Shown here: positions 51 to 6,700 of the stretch, piece by piece
Position numbering within the stretch: the stretch's first letter is position 1
Layout: every line of letters begins with the position of its first letter
Virus record (IMG/VR): IMGVR_UViG_3300010409_000030
Coordinates: 1 to 6,700 of that record
DNA: 6,700 nucleotides
Direction: 5' to 3' (one strand)
DNA from: a virus
Program-made: the position numbers and the translations under genes
The notes under the pieces: generated by a model
What the model was told of the DNA's origin: nothing
Seen by the model: the letters and a program-made list of their open reading frames with translations, nothing else
Databases searched by the model: none

Positions 51-92
51 GTGTAAGAATGTATAAGTGTCAAAGTGTAAAAGTATTAAAGA
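51..92. repeat. Tandem 8-bp iteron-like repeats, consensus GT(A/C)(A/T)AAGT, in the intergenic region between the gV-like gene and the plus-strand RHH gene
   Basis: Read directly: gtgtaagaat(51-60) gtataagt(61-68) gtcaaagt(69-76) gtaaaagt(77-84) attaaaga(85-92). That is three clear head-to-tail copies flanked by degenerate ones. A duplicate lies at 6501-6542. Confidence 0.6.
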
Positions 93-122
93 AAATTAGC
101 AAACAATAATATTAATAATTTG

Positions 123-128
123 TATAAT
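123..128 (+). promoter_or_regulatory. Candidate -10 element (perfect TATAAT) for the plus-strand RHH-like gene
   Basis: TATAAT at 123-128 lies 34 nt upstream of the ATG at 162. The best -35 candidates are poor (caaaca at 100-105; ttagca at 96-101 with spacing that is too long). The upstream region is A/T-rich. Confidence 0.35.
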
Positions 129-161
129 GGAAAATGTAATATGATTTTAATAGGCAATACA

Positions 162-341
162 ATGAATGAACTAAAAACGATAAAGATAACAGACGAAGCA
201 CATAGAGCACTTGTACTGGGGAAAGCGATGGACGGAATTGCAATGACAAAATGGGTAAGTACTGTAATACTAGAAGCATTACAAAAAGATTGTCCAAGAG
301 CGTATGAAGAATTAAGAAAAGAGTTTATTAAAGAAGAATGA
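162..341 (+). CDS. Small (59 aa) ribbon-helix-helix-like DNA-binding protein, a putative phage transcriptional regulator. Alternative starts are ATG 141 and TTG 120.
   Basis: Translation from 162 is MNELKTIKITDEAHRALVLGKAMDGIAMTKWVSTVILEALQKDCPRAYEELRKEFIKEE. The pattern is a short beta strand (KTIKIT), helix, G-turn and a second helix (MTKWVSTVILEALQK), typical of Arc/CopG/MetJ-type RHH proteins. It is the only credible plus-strand gene, and its stop TGA is at 339-341. Start choice is uncertain: the SD is weak (tAGGc before 162; GGAAAA before 141). Confidence 0.6.
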   Translation: MNELKTIKITDEAHRALVLGKAMDGIAMTKWVSTVILEALQKDCPRAYEELRKEFIKEE

Positions 342-1598
342 TTACTTATATATATATTCAGTATTAACACCGTGTAATTTCAGCCATTCAACACACAAAT
401 GAAAACCACCATTTTCGATTAAATAAAGCATTAAGAAACGTGCTTTATTTTTTCGAATAATTAACCAGCTAATACCGTCAAGGTTACCAAGTTGATAAGC
501 CTTATCAATATCTTCATTAGCAATTTCTTCATCTGTTTTTTCATCAACATTGAAAAAGTCTTTAAGACCATTCGTCCAATAAAGCTGTCTTTTGCCTGCG
601 AATGCCTTAGCATATTCAACAAATAATTGGCCGTGAGCTTCACGATCTGAAGATTCGAGAGAGTTTGCACTTTCGAGAAGTGCGAACGGAGGCAAACCTT
701 TTGAAGAAGATTTCAAACTTGAAGACGTTAACTCTTTATCAATACCCCAACCATCCTGAGAGCTTTTCTGAAGATAATCACCAGAGGAAACATTGAGCTT
801 TATATCAACAGCGTGCTTTTTAAAAGAAGTGCTTTTCCCTTTCGGGATGAGTCCTGCTTTATCACATGCTTTAAACCAAAAATGTTTGATAATTGCCGTT
901 TGTCTATGAATTTTGGAAGGCTTATGAAACCACAACTCATGTGTATGAGGGTGCCAACCATTAGAACCATAAACAACTTCGAGGCCACGAATTAAACCCT
1001 TGTAACCTATTTCTTTAAGCATGTTTTTATATGCGCGTGATTCTCTAAAGTACTTAAGAGCTTGTTTTTGCTTATCTATCAAATATTTACAAGATTGAAA
1101 AGAATAGTGCGGGAAAGTTAAAGTGATCATTGAGCATGATAAACCATGATCATTATAAGCTGATTCGATTGCCTTGGAGACTTCAACCGAACGACGAGAT
1201 TGAATAAGAACAGAACAAAGAGGACAAGACCAGACAGAACCGCAAGTTACTAGACCAGTGTAAAAGCATTTGCCAGTAGACGCGGATTTGTTAATACCGA
1301 CTTGTTTAGCCATCATTGTGTGTCGACAATGAACAACGCGATAAGCACCTTTGATCTGTTTTATATCAATAGCACCTTTTGACAGTAAATCATTTCTTAA
1401 TAATGATCTGGCTGTGTCGTGCATTTCGTAACGTAAAGCCCTATTTTTTACAGACTTTTGAGCCGCTTTTTCGGTATCGGAGCCACCGTCATTGCTACGT
1501 TTTGACCCTCCAATAGCGGCCGAGGATTTCGCATAGTTACCTAGCTGCTCCGCAAGCTCCGCAGATGTAACTAAACTAGATATTTTAAGCGCTTCCAT
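342..1598 (-). CDS. Rolling-circle replication initiator (HUH endonuclease superfamily; pC194/Rep_1- or phage CRI-like), functional equivalent of gII/RstA
   Basis: 418 aa. Motif 1-like MITLTF (res 157-162). HUH motif WHPHTHELWF (H216-H220, nt 939-953, checked against the DNA). Candidate catalytic Tyr in SGDYLQK (Y275). A Cys cluster C91/C111/C119/C125-P-L-C128 (CGSVWSCPLC) resembles the zinc-ribbon found ahead of motif 1 in many RCR Reps. It sits in the position expected for rep in an inovirus. Confidence 0.88.
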   Translation of the reverse strand: MEALKISSLVTSAELAEQLGNYAKSSAAIGGSKRSNDGGSDTEKAAQKSVKNRALRYEMHDTARSLLRNDLLSKGAIDIKQIKGAYRVVHCRHTMMAKQVGINKSASTGKCFYTGLVTCGSVWSCPLCSVLIQSRRSVEVSKAIESAYNDHGLSCSMITLTFPHYSFQSCKYLIDKQKQALKYFRESRAYKNMLKEIGYKGLIRGLEVVYGSNGWHPHTHELWFHKPSKIHRQTAIIKHFWFKACDKAGLIPKGKSTSFKKHAVDIKLNVSSGDYLQKSSQDGWGIDKELTSSSLKSSSKGLPPFALLESANSLESSDREAHGQLFVEYAKAFAGKRQLYWTNGLKDFFNVDEKTDEEIANEDIDKAYQLGNLDGISWLIIRKNKARFLMLYLIENGGFHLCVEWLKLHGVNTEYIYK

Positions 1599-1625
1599 TT
1601 ATAATAATCCCGTCTTAGTATGACA

Positions 1626-1657
1626 GGCGGTCATAATGGGTGTGGAGCCCGACCGCC
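1626..1657. promoter_or_regulatory. GC-rich bulged hairpin in the rep leader; candidate origin, nick-site or translational control structure
   Basis: ggcggtc(1626-1632) pairs perfectly with gaccgcc(1651-1657). An inner ggg(1638-1640)/ccc(1648-1650) gives 10 bp in total, with a 5-nt bulge (ataat) and a 7-nt loop (tgtggag). It lies 28 nt upstream of the rep ATG and downstream of the predicted rep promoter, and it is a GC island in very AT-rich DNA. Confidence 0.55.
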
Positions 1658-1666
1658 AAAACAATT

Positions 1667-1695
1667 ATTCTATATATATTACACTTTTCTATCAA
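1667..1695 (-). promoter_or_regulatory. Candidate sigma70-type promoter for rep
   Basis: On the minus strand: TTGATA (1695..1690), a 17-nt spacer, then TAGAAT (1672..1667). This predicts a start near 1660 and a leader of about 60 nt containing the 1626-1657 hairpin. Confidence 0.5.
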
Positions 1696-1750
1696 TACAC
1701 TTTTAAGATATACGCGTTACGTCCTTCGTCGATAGTTTCTAAACGGAACG

Positions 1751-1787
1751 GTTTTTTAAAATATCGAAAAGATGATATTTTAAAAAC
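1751..1787. repeat. AT-rich inverted repeat (13-bp perfect arms, 8-nt loop) between the accessory operon and the rep promoter
   Basis: tttttaaaatatc(1753-1765) and gatattttaaaaa(1774-1786) are exact reverse complements, with loop gaaaagat. The stem can extend to g1751/c1787 with a 1-nt bulge. It starts 16 nt after the stop of the 51-aa ORF on the minus strand. No proper U-tract follows, so it is not a canonical terminator. Confidence 0.6.
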
Positions 1788-1802: not shown

Positions 1803-1958
1803 TTATAGTGATTTAAAAAATTTGTAAATCATCGGTAAAAGCCCAAGCGAGACAATAAAGTAAAAAATATAATAATTTAAATCCATGTTGACCCCTAATG
1901 TGGTGGGTAAAATAATAAGCAAAGATAGCAGTATTATTATCAGGTTTGTATTAGTCAT
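1803..1958 (-). CDS. Unannotated small ORF: 51-aa predicted two-TM membrane peptide, third gene of the accessory operon
   Basis: Hand translation of the minus strand from ATG 1958..1956 gives MTNTNLIIILLSLLIILPTTLGVNMDLNYYIFYFIVSLGLLPMIYKFFKSL, with stop TAA at 1805..1803. It has two hydrophobic stretches separated by a polar turn and a basic C-terminus. The ATG overlaps the upstream stop (ATGACTAA, 8-nt overlap), and AAGG lies 9-10 nt upstream. It is below the length cutoff of the ORF track. Confidence 0.5.
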   Translation of the reverse strand: MTNTNLIIILLSLLIILPTTLGVNMDLNYYIFYFIVSLGLLPMIYKFFKSL

Positions 1959-2157
1959 TTTTTATTACCTTTTCATAAGTGTAATTAACACTATCAATTG
2001 CCCAGTAATAGCGAATTTCTTTATTTGTGGATGACTCTGTGTCAATCCTAAGTAATGCTGTTGTTTCATCTACAGATAGTAAATGGTATCCGCAATAGGC
2101 ACATATTTTACAAAGTAGGTCAAAAACAAAATCACTTTTTTTAATAGAATTAATCAT
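1951..2157 (-). CDS. Hypothetical 68-aa protein with a C-x2-C-x2-C motif, second gene of the accessory operon
   Basis: MINSIKKSDFVFDLLCKICAYCGYHLL... The SD GGAG lies 8 nt upstream (ctaGGAGtttaataATG). The ATG begins 2 nt after the TAA of the upstream gene, which suggests translational coupling. I recognise no family. Confidence 0.6.
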   Translation of the reverse strand: MINSIKKSDFVFDLLCKICAYCGYHLLSVDETTALLRIDTESSTNKEIRYYWAIDSVNYTYEKVIKND

Positions 2158-2159
2158 TA

Positions 2160-2444
2160 TTAAACTCCTAGATCAATCGATAATAAATCACCTTGATGTG
2201 TAATTTCCAAAGCTCTACGACAAACACCATCGAGGGTTTTAATAATTTGCTCCTGACTTTGTTGTTTACCCAATAATGAAATATATTTACTTTCTAAATC
2301 CTGATATTCCTTTTGTAATTTTAAGTACTCACGTCCAGCGGTAATAAAAGTCTTAGACATAGTTACTTCATTTACTGAATTTTGTAGATCAGTAAGGAAT
2401 TGCTCAGTTTCTTTGTTTTCTTGTATACGTAGTTGAATTATCAT
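2160..2444 (-). CDS. Hypothetical 94-aa protein with an RHH-like N-terminus and a coiled-coil-like C-terminal half; first gene of the accessory operon and a putative autoregulator
   Basis: Preferred start is ATG 2444..2442, because AAGGTG lies 5 nt upstream (aaaAAGGTGttattATG). The track ORF start at 2543 adds a hydrophobic, Cys-rich 33-aa extension that overlaps the predicted promoter. The sequence MIIQLRIQENKETEQFLTDLQNSVNEVTMSKTFITAGREYLKLQKEYQDLESKYISLLGKQQSQEQ has a strand-helix-helix pattern followed by a heptad-like Q/E/K/L-rich segment. Confidence 0.6.
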   Translation of the reverse strand: MIIQLRIQENKETEQFLTDLQNSVNEVTMSKTFITAGREYLKLQKEYQDLESKYISLLGKQQSQEQIIKTLDGVCRRALEITHQGDLLSIDLGV

Positions 2445-2500
2445 AATAACACCTTTTTTAATATCAAAAATTAAGCAGGTTGAATACCTGGGACAAAAGA

Positions 2501-2529
2501 ATGATATCAAAAAAGATAAGTAATGACAA
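2501..2529 (-). promoter_or_regulatory. Candidate strong sigma70 promoter with extended -10 for the accessory operon
   Basis: On the minus strand: TTGTCA (2529..2524), a 17-nt spacer, then TGaTATCAT (TG 2509..2508, -10 at 2506..2501). This predicts a leader of about 50 nt to the ATG at 2444. The -10 lies inside a TGATATCA palindrome. Confidence 0.55.
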
Positions 2530-2548
2530 TAAAATGATATCAAAATGT

Positions 2549-2572
2549 CTACCCGGTAGAGCTACCAGGTGA
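2549..2572. promoter_or_regulatory. Alternating CTACC/GGTAG half-sites (tandem palindromes), a candidate second operator
   Basis: CTACC(2549-2553) c GGTAG(2555-2559) ag CTACC(2562-2566) a GGTGA(2568-2572). That is three perfect 5-mers in alternating orientation plus a degenerate fourth, located between repeat copies 2 and 3. Confidence 0.4.
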
Positions 2573-2585
2573 AGATAATGATATG

Positions 2586-2643
2586 AAAAACAGCGATTAG
2601 CCTGCGCGCTCCTCATGTCGCTTGCTTGCTAATCGCTGTTTTT
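2586..2643 (-). terminator. Large hairpin immediately after the zot-like stop: an intrinsic (potentially bidirectional) terminator and candidate packaging-signal hairpin
   Basis: aaaaacagcgattagc(2586-2601) and gctaatcgctgttttt(2628-2643) are perfect 16-bp reverse complements. The 26-nt loop is GC-rich (ctgcgcgctcctcatgtcgcttgctt). T-runs follow the stem on both strands. The stem begins at the zot-like stop codon (2643-2645). Confidence 0.65.
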
Positions 2644-3872
2644 TAAAGTGATATAGTTATACAAGTTAATTTAGTTTGAAATTTTTTATACTTAATTTCG
2701 GCCGCACAATGGTCATAAGGCTTAATCTCATAACCTATATTTTTAAGATCGGTACTTAAATAAGTTGAGACTTGACCAGAGTTAACAAAAGATAATGTAT
2801 AAATATAACCGGATGCAGAACGGCCAGATCCAGAGATATAAATAGTTGAGCCTTCGAGAGGCCCCGAGATTATCCGACCAGCCTTATTAGAGATGACAGG
2901 GCCATCATTATCAGTACTGCTATGATTATGGCTAAAGGTATGCGAAAGACTTTTAAAAATATCTTCATTAGAAATAGGGGCACCGCCTTTACTACTTTGT
3001 ATATTATCTTGAGTAACTTCAGAACTACTATCTTCAATAGAAACAGGAACGGGAAGACTATCTTTTTTAATATTAGTAGGAACTGCTGTTGGGTTGTCGA
3101 ATACTGGTGGTAGGAATCCGTCACCTGATTTACTGAAAGCCCACCCCGCACACCCAACGGCCACAGATACCAGAATAATAACTCTAGGCGAAGCAAAGAC
3201 GTTAAAACCGTTGAAAGTATCGGTAAACCGACCTGTTTGTGTTGAATGGTAGAGACTAAAGGTAAGTGGACTAATCCTTTTATCTTTGATTGATTCGAAG
3301 TCTGTAAATGATTTTCCGTCTTTTTGTGCATCGTGTAATGCCTCCTTATAACCTTTAAACATAGGCCCAAACAAAGCCTTGTTTCTGTGTTTGTATGCAG
3401 ATTCACAAGTCATTCTAATATCATCGCGAATATATTTAATATTAGGTGCTGTTAAGACAATGTCCCAGTTATAGTGCCGTTGCTTTTGCCAAGCTGTGTT
3501 CCAATTAAAAGGCCTCCCTATTTTATTGCAACCATCTAAACCAAGTGGATTATTTAACGATTCAATTTGTCTCTTGTCCCAAATTTTTGGAAAAATAACA
3601 CCAGCCTCATCCAATAAGATCAAAGCTCCAAGTGGTGCCCAATGAAACCAAGTTGCAATCTTATCAAGCCCTTCTGTTGTTTCTGTATCAACATTAATAA
3701 CATCGAAAGAATCAGGTATGTGCGGCATATTCTTAAATGTATTATCACGAGTGACACCAGCAATATTAGTTACTACAACCCTCCCCTGTTCAGCAGCCGG
3801 AATAAAGTAATCTTGAATAACGCCTGAAGTTTTGAAAGAACCGTTTGAACCATGGTGAATAGCTATGGCCAT
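2643..3872 (-). CDS. zot: Zot/pI-family phage assembly ATPase (inner-membrane morphogenesis protein)
   Basis: 409 aa. The N-terminus MAIAIHHGSNGSFKTSG closely resembles the N-terminus of Vibrio cholerae Zot as I recall it (MSIFIHHGAPGSYKTSG). Walker A is GSNGSFKTS (res 8-16) and Walker B is LILLDEA (res 84-90). A single central TM is VIILVSVAVGCAGWAF (res 231-246), followed by a periplasmic C-terminal domain. SD GAGGG lies 7 nt upstream. The ATG overlaps the upstream stop (TAATG). Confidence 0.93.
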   Translation of the reverse strand: MAIAIHHGSNGSFKTSGVIQDYFIPAAEQGRVVVTNIAGVTRDNTFKNMPHIPDSFDVINVDTETTEGLDKIATWFHWAPLGALILLDEAGVIFPKIWDKRQIESLNNPLGLDGCNKIGRPFNWNTAWQKQRHYNWDIVLTAPNIKYIRDDIRMTCESAYKHRNKALFGPMFKGYKEALHDAQKDGKSFTDFESIKDKRISPLTFSLYHSTQTGRFTDTFNGFNVFASPRVIILVSVAVGCAGWAFSKSGDGFLPPVFDNPTAVPTNIKKDSLPVPVSIEDSSSEVTQDNIQSSKGGAPISNEDIFKSLSHTFSHNHSSTDNDGPVISNKAGRIISGPLEGSTIYISGSGRSASGYIYTLSFVNSGQVSTYLSTDLKNIGYEIKPYDHCAAEIKYKKFQTKLTCITISL

Positions 3873-4196: not shown

Positions 4197-5564
4197 TCAC
4201 CTAAATATAATAAAAGCGGCAATCATTAAGCCGAGGAATAAAAATAAAAGCTGAATTGGGGCCAACCCATCTTGGTAGTCAGTAAGGCAAATTTCTCTTG
4301 TAACATCGCCAAAAGTAATGAAATCAATACAAGAAGGAGTCGCAGAACTAATTAATTCAACATCGAAAATATCTTCAGCTTCAGAACGAACAAGGCCAAT
4401 TTGAGTCTTTAATCCTGCAAGTTCTGTCAAAATCTCAGCTTCAATTGAATCAGTATCAAATTCCCCGATCACCCCCGAAGGATTAAAGTTAATACAGCTA
4501 AGACCGTTAGGATCAGACTCACAAGTAACATCTTGTTCTGCGGGTTCGCCATCACTGCCCGAACTTTCCGTACTAGTGTTAGAGCTAGTTTTATTTCCTG
4601 AGGAGTCATAAGTTTCACTTGTATTGGTTGTTTGAGAACCCGACAAAGACGGGGAAGTAGTTTGAGTAATTGTGTTGTTTTTTATATCAACTACGGTGGT
4701 ATCGACTGGAGTCTGAGTGTAGTCAGTGGTAGTAGAAGATTGGACAGTTTTTGAACCGTCCGAAGCAGTTGTAATAGACGTTACTGTGGTTTCACTCTTT
4801 ATTAAACCCTGCGTATCAGTAATGGTCTTTTTATCTGTAGTTGTTTGAATAGTAATACCAGTAGATTTAGTTTCTGTTAAAACGTCAGTTTTAGTCTCTA
4901 CGATAGAACCATCGGGCAAAGATGTAGTAATAGGATCGTTAAAAGTTTGAGTTGAAGTATCTTTTGTATAGTCACCATCAGTCAATAAATTATCAGGTTC
5001 ATCTAAACTATCAGGATGAGAATCATCAAAAACCTCTTTTTCATCATCAGTAGGAAAACCTGTATATGTATATTCAATAAGTGCTGCACATTGAATCGAA
5101 GTTTTAGAAGGGTCTTTATAACAAGCGTAGGTATCACGCTCATTACTTACCACGTCACAACCTTGATAAGAATACTGATTACTAAAAGAAATTACCATTT
5201 CACCATCATTATCTCGCACAGGACTTGGAACAAACCTTTTAATAACAGTACCAGTTTCAGGACAATTAACTGGAGGAGGTGTCAAACTACATTCAAATGA
5301 ATCAGAAACATACGTACAATTTTCATCACCTAAAACCGCCATCCTAAAATAATGACCAACATCTTGGGATGGTCTAAAATAGCCCTTGGTCGGTGTGCTT
5401 GAACATTGGCGAGAATAAAGCCAAGTAAACGCCCTAGCTTCAGCATTGCAGGCAGCACGTAATGCAGTAACATTGGTGTAATATTTATTATAAGTAAGAG
5501 CAAAAGCTTCAAAAGATAAAACCGACGTAATAAGCCCAAAGAAACCCAGAAAAAAATACTTCAT
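4197..5564 (-). CDS. pIII/OrfU-like minor coat adsorption protein
   Basis: 455 aa. Signal peptide MKYFFLGFFGLITSVLSFEAFA. N-terminal domain with 8 Cys. Long Thr/Ser-rich low-complexity linker (about res 195-340, nt about 4545-4982). C-terminal domain with 4 Cys. Terminal TM anchor LLFLFLGLMIAAFIIFR. Its position between the major coat gene and the pVI-like gene is canonical. Confidence 0.8.
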   Translation of the reverse strand: MKYFFLGFFGLITSVLSFEAFALTYNKYYTNVTALRAACNAEARAFTWLYSRQCSSTPTKGYFRPSQDVGHYFRMAVLGDENCTYVSDSFECSLTPPPVNCPETGTVIKRFVPSPVRDNDGEMVISFSNQYSYQGCDVVSNERDTYACYKDPSKTSIQCAALIEYTYTGFPTDDEKEVFDDSHPDSLDEPDNLLTDGDYTKDTSTQTFNDPITTSLPDGSIVETKTDVLTETKSTGITIQTTTDKKTITDTQGLIKSETTVTSITTASDGSKTVQSSTTTDYTQTPVDTTVVDIKNNTITQTTSPSLSGSQTTNTSETYDSSGNKTSSNTSTESSGSDGEPAEQDVTCESDPNGLSCINFNPSGVIGEFDTDSIEAEILTELAGLKTQIGLVRSEAEDIFDVELISSATPSCIDFITFGDVTREICLTDYQDGLAPIQLLFLFLGLMIAAFIIFR

Positions 5565-5579
5565 ATAATTAACTCAGAT

Positions 5580-5605
5580 AAAAAAAAAGGAGCCTAAGCC
5601 CCTTT
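5580..5605 (-). terminator. Rho-independent terminator downstream of the major coat gene
   Basis: The minus-strand RNA reads AAAGGGGC UUAG GCUCCUUU followed by a U-run. That is an 8-bp stem including one G-U pair and a 4-nt loop; the T-run (9 A at 5580-5588 on the plus strand) supplies the last three stem pairs. The placement mirrors the terminator after gene VIII in Ff phages. Confidence 0.8.
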
Positions 5606-5677
5606 ATATATACCAACCGAGCCGAACGCCCGTAACGAACGCACTAGCCGCAGCAGCTCCAAGGAGCATGGAAAAAA

Positions 5678-5896
5678 TCAAATTTTACGGATCATTCCAA
5701 GAACTACACCAACAACCACGAAGGATGCGACAGCAGCAATTACCATTTGCCCGATTGATAAACCGGAAGTTTCCGCAGCAGTAATAGCTGTTTGAACAGC
5801 TGTATCATCAAGAGCAGCATGGGCCTGTGAAACAACAAGAGCAGAACCAGTAGCAAAAGTCGCAGCTAAACTTTTTAAGATAAAACCTTTATTCAT
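5678..5896 (-). CDS. Major coat protein (pVIII/Cep-like) precursor
   Basis: 72 aa. A 27-aa signal peptide ends AHA, then a 45-aa mature peptide ALDDTAVQTAITAAETSGLSIGQMVIAAVASFVVVGVVLGMIRKI. The mature peptide has an acidic N-terminus, a hydrophobic core and a basic C-terminus. SD AGGA lies 8 nt upstream. ATGA overlaps the upstream gene. A terminator follows. Confidence 0.85.
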   Translation of the reverse strand: MNKGFILKSLAATFATGSALVVSQAHAALDDTAVQTAITAAETSGLSIGQMVIAAVASFVVVGVVLGMIRKI

Positions 5897-6450: not shown

Positions 6451-6487
6451 ATTTATAACCTTTTTTATTTAATTCTATATGAGAATG

Positions 6488-6515
6488 ATTATATTAAACT
6501 GTGTAAGAATGTATA
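6488..6515 (-). promoter_or_regulatory. Candidate promoter for the gV-coat operon (copy also at 38-65)
   Basis: On the minus strand: TATACA (6515..6510), a 16-nt spacer, then a perfect TATAAT (6493..6488). This lies about 38 nt upstream of the gV-like ATG. The -35 overlaps the 8-bp tandem repeats. Confidence 0.4.
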
Positions 6516-6611
6516 AGTGTCAAAGTGTAAAAGTATTAAAGAAAATTAGCAAACAATAATATTAATAATTTGTATAATGGAAAATGTAATATGATTTTAA
6601 TAGGCAATACA

Positions 6612-6700
6612 ATGAATGAACTAAAAACGATAAAGATAACAGACGAAGCACATAGAGCACTTGTACTGGGGAAAGCGATGGACGGAATTGCAATGACAAA
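6612..6700 (+). CDS. Duplicate 5-prime part of the RHH-like gene (same gene as 162..341), truncated by the window end
   Basis: It lies inside the exact terminal overlap and is not an independent locus. Confidence 0.6.
   Translation, partial: MNELKTIKITDEAHRALVLGKAMDGIAMT

Follow-up and report, generated by a model that had tools for sequence, protein, structure and literature searches.

Small membrane peptides have been described in the inovirus Pf4. One of them, PftP4 (PA0726.1), is a formerly unannotated peptide of 33 aa whose ATG overlaps the stop codon of zot (Weng et al., Viruses 2025; PMC11769263). It is located in the membrane, is toxic when overexpressed, is dispensable for virion production and may, according to a proposal of its authors, slow down phage production as a brake (PMC11769263). 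Its sequence (MIDWEFLVPVAMGWALHHWWTVMTALAAVGAPP) could be confirmed in the Pf4 record at the place given by those authors. Another, PfsE (PA0721), is described as an inner-membrane peptide that inhibits type IV pili and brings about superinfection exclusion (Schmidt et al., mBio 2022; PMC8764522), and is treated as the gVII capsid gene in the study of PftP4 (PMC11769263). In the sequence taken from AY324828, PfsE has 30 aa and a single transmembrane (TM) segment, and its gene lies in the structural module, between the gene of the ssDNA-binding protein (gene V) and PA0722. Peptides of the PfsE type are characterized by their binding to PilC, the platform protein of type IV pili, and by the block of reinfection.

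The locus that we have analyzed holds a small ORF, hereafter cand51, that is probably translated into another hydrophobic peptide. The window (6,700 nucleotides) represents the whole circular genome of an inovirus of ~6450 bp, with bases 1-250 recurring at 6451-6700. The circularity is based on the same ORFs appearing again at an offset of 6450 and on the sequence mapping round two circularly permuted contigs. The genome originates from a kelp-biofilm metagenome of Monterey Bay (contig Ga0136809_1005945, run SRR5035895), and both assemblies that contain it are identical over the region and derive from the same kelp sample, so that there is no variation to read. Its G+C content is 36%, the coding strand is T-rich and the core genes are all on the minus strand (Table 1). 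The initial annotation had assigned the DNA to a filamentous phage, and rightly so, as Zot, DUF2523/pVI, Phage_Coat_B, an ssDNA-binding protein and Rep_1 are all present; neither an integrase nor a secretin was found in the 6.45-kb genome, either in the ORF list or with Pfam profiles. Zot has 37-47% identity to its counterparts in Pf1/Pf4-like phages and Rep 34% to that of Pseudomonas phage PMBT54. The closest Rep among 5.8 billion proteins has 59% identity, and the relatives of Rep found within genomes (at most 41% identity) belong mainly to Gammaproteobacteria. For comparison of gene neighborhoods we have used seven relatives of Rep with their context and 80 more from genomes (Rep identity at most 59%).

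Table 1. Coordinates of the genes, predicted segments and DNA elements of the window, in the order in which they are read on the minus strand.
Feature	Position	Strand	Remarks
ssDNA-binding protein	6450-6124	-	
g76	6123-5893	-	76-aa protein
Major coat protein	5896-5678	-	Phage_Coat_B, 72 aa
pIII-like protein	5564-4197	-	455 aa
pVI-like protein	4192-3872	-	DUF2523
Zot/pI	3872-2643	-	
Inverted repeat	2586-2643	-	terminator-like; perfect 16 bp, 26-nt loop, then T run; starts at zot stop
Promoter-like sigma-70 hexamers	2440-2589	-	2529-2501 and 2467-2440, overlapping the three 21-nt direct repeats
21-nt direct repeats, three copies	2492-2512, 2525-2545, 2569-2589		
g94	2160-2444	-	first cistron of its unit; PHROG 8031/15613
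g68	1951-2157	-	68-aa orphan gene; SD TAGGAG; start 2 nt past g94 stop
Shine-Dalgarno-like AAGGT	1967-1971	-	within AAAAGGT; AAGG at 1971-1968, last G 9 nt from ATG
ATGACTAA	1951-1958	-	cand51 start codon embedded in the 3' end of g68, stop codon included; 8-nt overlap
cand51	1958-1803	-	51-codon ATG ORF, TAA stop at 1805-1803; product MTNTNLIIILLSLLIILPTTLGVNMDLNYYIFYFIVSLGLLPMIYKFFKSL
Hydrophobic segment 1	1890-1943	-	codons of L6-V23
Hydrophobic segment 2	1824-1874	-	aromatic-rich; codons of Y29-Y45, then basic tail KFFKSL
A/T palindrome	1753-1786	.	perfect 13 bp, 8-nt loop; 17 nt past cand51 stop; absent from L006
DNA block conserved with L005 and L006	1600-1702	-	promoter-like TTGATA-17-TAGAAT; GGCGGTC/GACCGCC hairpin
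Rolling-circle replication initiator (Rep)	342-1598	-	Rep_1-type; next gene downstream of cand51
Small regulator-like gene	141/162-341	+	conserved

Within the structural module, another small ORF was found directly after the coat gene and before the coat terminator. It comprises 25 codons (5681-5604, minus strand; product MIFSMLLGAAAASAFVTGVRLGWYI) and has a TTG start that overlaps the coat stop. Clearly related peptides with a GTG start occupy the same slot in the relatives L009 (VIWSLLLGTLAAGAFITGCKQGWFT) and L011 (VIFSILAGCLVAAGFIGGVRLGWFA) and in Pf4 and Pf1 (VLWSVWLGAFFAGAFITGYRTGEFF); in the reference record of Pf1 this stretch is annotated as intergenic. The nucleotide differences are concentrated at the third codon position (e.g., 8/9/18 and 12/8/20 for the three positions), with 8-9 of 24 codons differing synonymously. 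Judged by these alignments, the 25-aa ORF carries a conservation signature that is missing from cand51 in the same comparative loci. Together with g76 it is a candidate for the small tip proteins of the structural module. That small hydrophobic cistrons of inoviruses are missed by gene callers is illustrated more strongly by this ORF than by cand51.

Downstream of zot, the order of the genes is g94, g68 and cand51, with the terminator of zot on one side of them and the Rep promoter/origin block on the other. The terminator-like hairpin would separate the morphogenesis operon from this unit, and the hexamers and direct repeats that follow it are its probable promoter/operator. The g94 protein has a strand-like N-terminal start, a coiled coil and a C-terminal LEITxQGDLL motif, and homologues with this motif were found in L005 (43% identity), L006, L010, phage blackswan219-6 and a Pseudomonas contig, in each case just ahead of Rep. 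Searches of the PDB gave coiled-coil matches only and the g94 profile had no match in IMG/VR; g94 is probably a regulator. The g68 protein has no recognizable fold or DNA-binding motif and its AlphaFold2 model is of low confidence (pLDDT 58). A 58-aa Cys-rich gene that occupies the same slot in L005 was considered as its relative and discarded, as the two proteins gave no alignment.

The slot between g94 and Rep is filled differently among the relatives, with nothing in L006, the 58-aa Cys-rich gene in L005 and a 94-aa gene in blackswan219-6. At the DNA level, L005 and L006 share with this genome only the conserved block that is the likely Rep promoter and/or plus-strand origin, and cand51 lies outside it. 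As read from these alignments, the slot is a variable cargo space that holds g68 and cand51, apart from the conserved origin/promoter block. The A/T palindrome located between cand51 and this block is a putative operator or origin element. Genes of the g94 family have a 3' end similar to a 19-nt stretch that begins 5 nt beyond the stop of cand51 (shuffle p=0.018). This stretch may, as a weak indication, be a scar at the edge of an insertion that brought g68 and cand51.

The ORF lies exactly where the initial annotation had placed it, with the same predicted peptide, and its start could be read directly in the minus strand as embedded in the stop of the upstream gene. The 3' end of g68 reads GAA AAG GTA ATA AAA AAT GAC TAA, and the ATG of cand51 (1958-1956) is contained within AAT GAC TAA. 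The AAGG that had been pointed out upstream of the ATG is present too. The longer motif AAAAGGT is found at nearly the same spacing before the ssDNA-binding-protein gene and g94. A Shine-Dalgarno-like 5-mer precedes six of the nine real starts of the phage (67%) and only 2 of 100 other ATGs of the coding strand; at non-gene ATGs its frequency is 2-7%. All cistrons of the phage are tightly joined, and the start of cand51 at the stop of the upstream gene follows its other junctions. In these respects (ribosome-binding motif, proper spacing, junction with the upstream cistron) cand51 looks like an ordinary gene.

The description of the product as two hydrophobic helices with a basic tail was also borne out. 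Both hydrophobic stretches are devoid of charges, the loop between them (NMDLN) has one Asp and the tail (KFFKSL) has two Lys, these three being the only charged residues in the peptide. AlphaFold2, run on the single sequence, predicts helices at residues 2-20 and 25-50 with a mean pLDDT of 82.7, in agreement with the segments listed in Table 1.

The alternative with the best standing is that cand51 is not a gene. It would be a chance frame in T-rich non-coding DNA, a spacer or insert that separates g68 from the Rep promoter/origin. In this case the ATG and the AAGG would be nothing but coding sequence of g68 (EKVIKND*), and the hydrophobic look would come from T-rich codons. We consider this possible, although rather doubtful. 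The length of the open frame speaks for a gene: when the 367-nt stretch is shuffled with its dinucleotides preserved, 5.9% of the shuffles contain a forward ATG ORF of 51 aa or more, and in shuffles that keep the base composition of cand51 a fixed ATG is followed by 50 codons without a stop in 3.0% of cases. The T-richness alone lifts the expected GRAVY to 0.76; shuffles of the same composition attain the value of cand51 (1.32) in 4% of cases. Spurious ORFs of ~50 aa with GRAVY of ~1.3-1.4 can be found in the same window (5003-5143, minus strand; 1885-2034, plus strand). Hydrophobicity alone is thus weak evidence because the genome is T-rich, and to this extent the caveat about AT-rich codon bias voiced in the initial annotation was justified. 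The clean two-segment pattern, however, is not given by T-richness itself. Only 0.9% of the open shuffles contain two charge-free hydrophobic windows, and the joint chance of an open frame (3%) with two TM windows from the ATG of cand51 is ~3e-4. In cand51, T is concentrated at the second codon position (0.56, against 0.33 and 0.37 at the others). One of ~25 spurious ORFs, 86-370 on the minus strand, has a two-TM pattern, which speaks for a chance origin. Apart from cand51, no further ORF of the window looks like this, and the frame at 86-370 shadows the plus-strand regulator, which is conserved. A shadow of this kind was rejected for cand51 itself, as each of the three antisense frames has several stops. 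Structured DNA such as a packaging signal or an origin was also discarded as the source of the pattern (z = -0.87, without excess structure), and so was a known RNA (no Rfam match at E<=1). Together with the motif frequencies and the position of the start, these results count against a chance frame.

Codon usage points in the opposite direction. The log-odds per codon of cand51 is -0.12, whereas the nine called genes range from +0.08 to +0.45 and the spurious ORFs from -0.40 to +0.02. The score for synonymous codons, in which amino-acid composition is accounted for, is 0.011 versus 0.135-0.43 in real genes; a value this low has p=0.011 under the preferences of the phage and fits the background composition. 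G at the first codon position amounts to only 0.10. By both codon and synonymous-codon usage cand51 is thus unlike the genes of the phage, and both gene-calling pipelines (JGI and Logan) skipped it. Such codon usage would be expected if the gene were young or recently acquired. Of the called genes it is g68, equally an orphan, that scores lowest, so that a foreign origin could account for the codon usage; this argument rescues the gene and is not evidence for it.

The homology searches favored a chance frame as well. Neither cand51 nor g68 had a homologue in a word-index search of 5.8 billion proteins, in which g68 matched itself only. HMMER over 1.84 billion representative proteins gave cand51 a single match (P0122), which we have rejected as a homologue, given that it is a translated tandem repeat of 1598 aa and a compositional artifact. 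No Pfam family was matched at E<=0.1, including Hok/Gef, Ldr, TisB, Ibs, Fst, GhoT/OrtT and the holins, and none of the PADLOC defence families at E<=1. NCBIfam returned a noise match of 13 bits, and nothing was found in PHROGs or among the PDB sequences. With Foldseek, the cand51 model produced at best E=2, or nothing, against BFVD and the PDB. There was no tblastn match of cand51 in phages and plasmids and no blastn match of the cassette in phages. When contigs (viral, metagenome and genome) were scanned with peptide patterns, low-complexity patterns saturated the output, with ~600 stretches and none confirmed, and a degenerate DNA pattern for NMDLNYYIFYF had no match in metagenome and viral contigs. 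A pattern for the C-terminal end of g68 gave three chance matches, in large unrelated contigs. No cand51-like sequence was present at E<1 in 89 related loci. Every test of family membership that could be run was thus negative. The relatives also have gaps before Rep of 80-823 nt, compared to 352 nt in this genome if cand51 is left out, so that a spacer there would be nothing unusual.

In weighing these results, the start site, the coupling, the open frame and the hydrophobic pattern multiply to a chance of ~1e-4 to 1e-3 for the junction; on the opposite side, the codon evidence amounts to a factor of ~5- to 10-fold, and the post-hoc selection of the ORF was also allowed for. Taken together, we regard cand51 as probably translated. 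Of the initial annotation, the ORF, the embedded start, the Shine-Dalgarno-like motif and the predicted two-helix product stand, and cand51 is a plausible gene; the codon usage argues against long-term coding in this phage and there is no homologue to lean on.

On the whole we lean slightly towards cand51 being a translated membrane hairpin, a lineage-specific accessory cargo of the 'moron' type that acts on the envelope, in an uncultured marine inovirus. The g94-g68-cand51 unit would begin just past the terminator of zot, with promoter/operator repeats of its own, and end ~100 nt ahead of the conserved Rep promoter/origin block. Ribosomes finishing g68 would re-initiate at the embedded ATG, aided by the AAGGT located 9 nt upstream. 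The product would insert in the inner membrane as a helical hairpin whose short NMDLN loop faces the periplasm and whose two ends stay in the cytoplasm. This predicted topology agrees with the positive-inside rule, with the two Lys at the C-terminal end and the Asp in the loop. The peptide has no soluble domain and must therefore act within the membrane, where it could either oligomerize or bind transmembrane parts of a host machine. The analogy to PftP4 and PfsE suggests as its target an envelope machine of the carrier cell, which it would bind or perturb. The outcome could be superinfection exclusion or a toxic 'brake' or addiction function, rather than a contribution to building the virion.

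A more specific proposal makes g68 and cand51 an addiction or abortive module, in which cand51 would be a pore-forming or depolarizing toxin neutralized by the soluble g68 protein, translated first and in excess. Such a module would stabilize an episome devoid of integrase or limit phage production. A way to assess this idea is the comparison with GhoT/OrtT, toxins of ~55 aa with two TM helices (type V toxin-antitoxin system GhoST of E. coli) encoded directly downstream of a small soluble partner. The layout here is similar: a small soluble protein followed in one operon by a stop-overlapping small hydrophobic protein with two TM segments, under its own promoter/operator, as in GhoS-GhoT or other antitoxin-then-toxin operons. 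The 6.45-kb genome indeed has no integrase, both genes are cargo missing from the relatives, and PftP4 provides the case of a toxic inovirus membrane peptide with a proposed role as an abortive-infection-like brake. Against this, no toxin (at E<=0.1 in Pfam), antitoxin, holin or defence family was matched, and g68, with its low-confidence model lacking a recognizable fold or DNA-binding motif, shows no recognizable relation to GhoS. Small membrane toxins, moreover, mostly have one TM segment and RNA antitoxins. We therefore think that an addiction module is unlikely. Similarly improbable, in our opinion, is a broader version in which g68 and cand51 are a two-gene cassette inserted as a unit in the regulator-to-Rep slot, with the two-TM peptide as a new kind of membrane effector that serves exclusion, addiction or the braking of production and is under the control of the soluble g68 protein. 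Coupled translation would exert this control; a more speculative route is a +1 slip at the A6 run of the junction, which would tether g68 to the membrane.

Segment 1 may alternatively be a leader peptide, with a possible cleavage at TLG|VN as judged by the -3/-1 rule alone. Cand51 would then be a procoat-like precursor or a minor virion or assembly protein, whose leader (residues 1-22) is cut off to leave a 29-aa N-out/C-in peptide with an acidic N-terminal end, an aromatic belt and a basic C-tail, much like a miniature coat protein or one of the pVII/pIX type. The residues at -5 (Pro), -3 (Thr) and -1 (Gly) agree with what signal peptidase I requires, and the C-terminal MIYKFFKSL resembles the basic ends of coat proteins (that of the window ends in GMIRKI). 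The procoat of M13/Ff is likewise a hairpin with N and C termini inside, a short periplasmic loop and a basic C-tail, all predicted for cand51 too, and pVII and pIX are of similar size. We nevertheless consider this reading very improbable, given that the n-region has no K or R, there is no profile match to Phage_Coat_B or Phage_coatGP8 and no alignment to the 72-aa coat protein of the window, the ORF lies outside the structural module (which already has its own small tip-protein candidates), in the variable cargo space that follows a terminator, and it is absent from all the relatives, unlike what is expected for a core virion protein.

We are left with an accessory membrane hairpin as the preferred reading, and among the described systems the initial annotation had compared cand51 to PfsE. 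Both are small, hydrophobic, aromatic-rich peptides of inoviruses, but they differ in size (30 versus 51 aa), in the number of membrane segments (one TM versus two segments) and in location (structural module versus zot-rep interval), and no BLASTP alignment was obtained at E<=100, so that the analogy holds only loosely. PftP4 is nearer in kind, being a hidden gene for a small hydrophobic inovirus peptide that overlaps an upstream stop between zot and the replication gene. Here too the differences are clear. PftP4 has 33 aa and one TM helix, overlaps zot itself, is transcribed together with it and is conserved across Pf1-Pf8, while cand51 has 51 aa and two hydrophobic segments, overlaps the orphan g68 and belongs to a separate unit behind a terminator, without relatives. 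In this genome there is no ATG at the zot stop, as would be expected for a start of the PftP type, and the 16-bp hairpin with its T run follows zot directly. The BLASTP comparison with MIDWEFLVPVAMGWALHHWWTVMTALAAVGAPP gave no alignment at E<=100 either. The closest analogue of cand51 would thus be PftP4 and not PfsE, with homology to neither, a likeness of kind and not of family. Membrane peptides of this sort can decide about superinfection, host fitness and phage yield. If translated, cand51 would provide, beside PftP4, a second and sequence-unrelated example of membrane-active micro-genes of inoviruses at zot-rep junctions, and would indicate that peptides of this kind are carried as variable cargo in a slot adjoining the replication module; if real, it is an unrelated addition to the small hydrophobic accessory peptides known to be hidden at gene junctions of inoviruses.

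Another hidden micro-gene of this genome, encoding a hydrophobic peptide of 25 aa, lies directly behind the major coat gene, whose stop is overlapped by its TTG start, and ends immediately ahead of the coat terminator. The same slot holds related peptides, all with a GTG start, in two metagenomic relatives (L009 and L011) and in Pf1 and Pf4. The mismatches among these ORFs cluster at codon position 3, with synonymous differences in 8-9 of 24 codons. The reference record of Pf1 labels this stretch "intergenic region", and a text search for PA0723.1 gave no match. The post-coat peptide may be the tip protein, of pVII/pIX type, that is missing in the Pf-like phages. A different uncalled ORF, also hydrophobic, with an ATG start and 22-24 aa long (for example MSPDPYLLILITGVLGIYLMCS, MEQLYVFAFFVIGASCAFATFRGW and MSYELYVLILTTLAFYLVFFGRV), was found in L006, PMBT54 and blackswan219-6, located 3' of the coat terminator and directly 5' of the pIII-like gene; those of L006 and blackswan219-6 are similar in appearance.

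Coordinates of the features in the window and in related inovirus loci (L-numbers)
Feature	Locus	Position	Strand	Remarks
25-aa ORF MIFSMLLGAAAASAFVTGVRLGWYI	window	5604-5681	-	
25-aa ORF relative	L009	3371-3451		
25-aa ORF relative	L011	~4243-4317		
25-aa ORF relative	L092 (Pf4)	4951-5028		
25-aa ORF relative	L093 (Pf1)	1070-1147		
22-24-aa ORF	L006	~4363-4431		
22-24-aa ORF	L001 (PMBT54)	~2661-2735		
22-24-aa ORF	L002 (blackswan219-6)	~2233-2304		
94-aa ORF, GTG start	window	86-370	-	antisense to conserved plus-strand regulator gene (141/162-341)
Perfect A/T-only 13-bp palindrome, TTTTTAAAATATC N8 GATATTTTAAAAA	window	1753-1786		17 nt beyond cand51 stop
g94	window	2160-2444	-	homologues in L005, L006, L010, L002, L020
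Conserved block AAGTGTATTGATAGAAAAGTGTAATA ... GGCGGTCGGGCT...	window	1600-1702	-	directly upstream of Rep
Block counterpart	L005	~2520-2623		
Block counterpart	L006	~1834-1902		
Direct repeats of 21 nt, three copies (GACAAAAGAATGATATCAAAA with variants)	window	2492-2589		upstream of g94
Perfect 16-bp hairpin	window	2586-2643		at zot stop; direct repeats follow directly

Frames that look like two-TM proteins can appear spuriously in this genome, as is shown by the 94-aa ORF, which has this pattern with just 2% charged residues and is most likely a shadow ORF. At the junction of the orphan gene g68 with cand51, the candidate 51-aa two-TM ORF, the sequence reads ATA AAA AAT GAC TAA and includes a run of six A (1959-1964, -). 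A -1 slip on this run leads to an immediate TGA, and a +1 slip would join g68 to cand51, a purely speculative event.

The first cistron of the unit that also contains g68 and cand51 is g94. It defines a small family conserved among inoviruses (PHROG 8031/15613), whose genes always directly precede that of Rep, the Rep_1-type initiator. Its members have a coiled coil and an invariant C-terminal LE..Q..L motif, and g94 is probably a regulator of replication or lysogeny. Just past the cand51 stop, CAAGAGGGTCGTTTTTAAA (1779-1797, -) is similar to the 3' end of the L006 family gene, CAAGGGGATCTTTTGAAA (shuffle p=0.018), which encodes QGDLLK; behind QGDLL, the g94 of the window carries the additional tail SIDLGV. 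This stretch may be the scar of the insertion that introduced g68 and cand51. No equivalent of the A/T palindrome was found in L006.

The block ahead of Rep is kept between phages with Rep proteins just 58-59% identical and gives rise to a spurious "conserved" ORF of 26-29 aa (MIEKCN...); it is likely to serve as the promoter of Rep, as the plus-strand origin or as both. The direct repeats upstream of g94 are spaced 33 and 44 nt apart and overlap with hexamers that resemble promoter elements; they probably constitute an operator array. Read on the coding strand, these repeats contain TTGATAT, which may resemble the core of the nick site in Rep_1 origins of the pC194 type.
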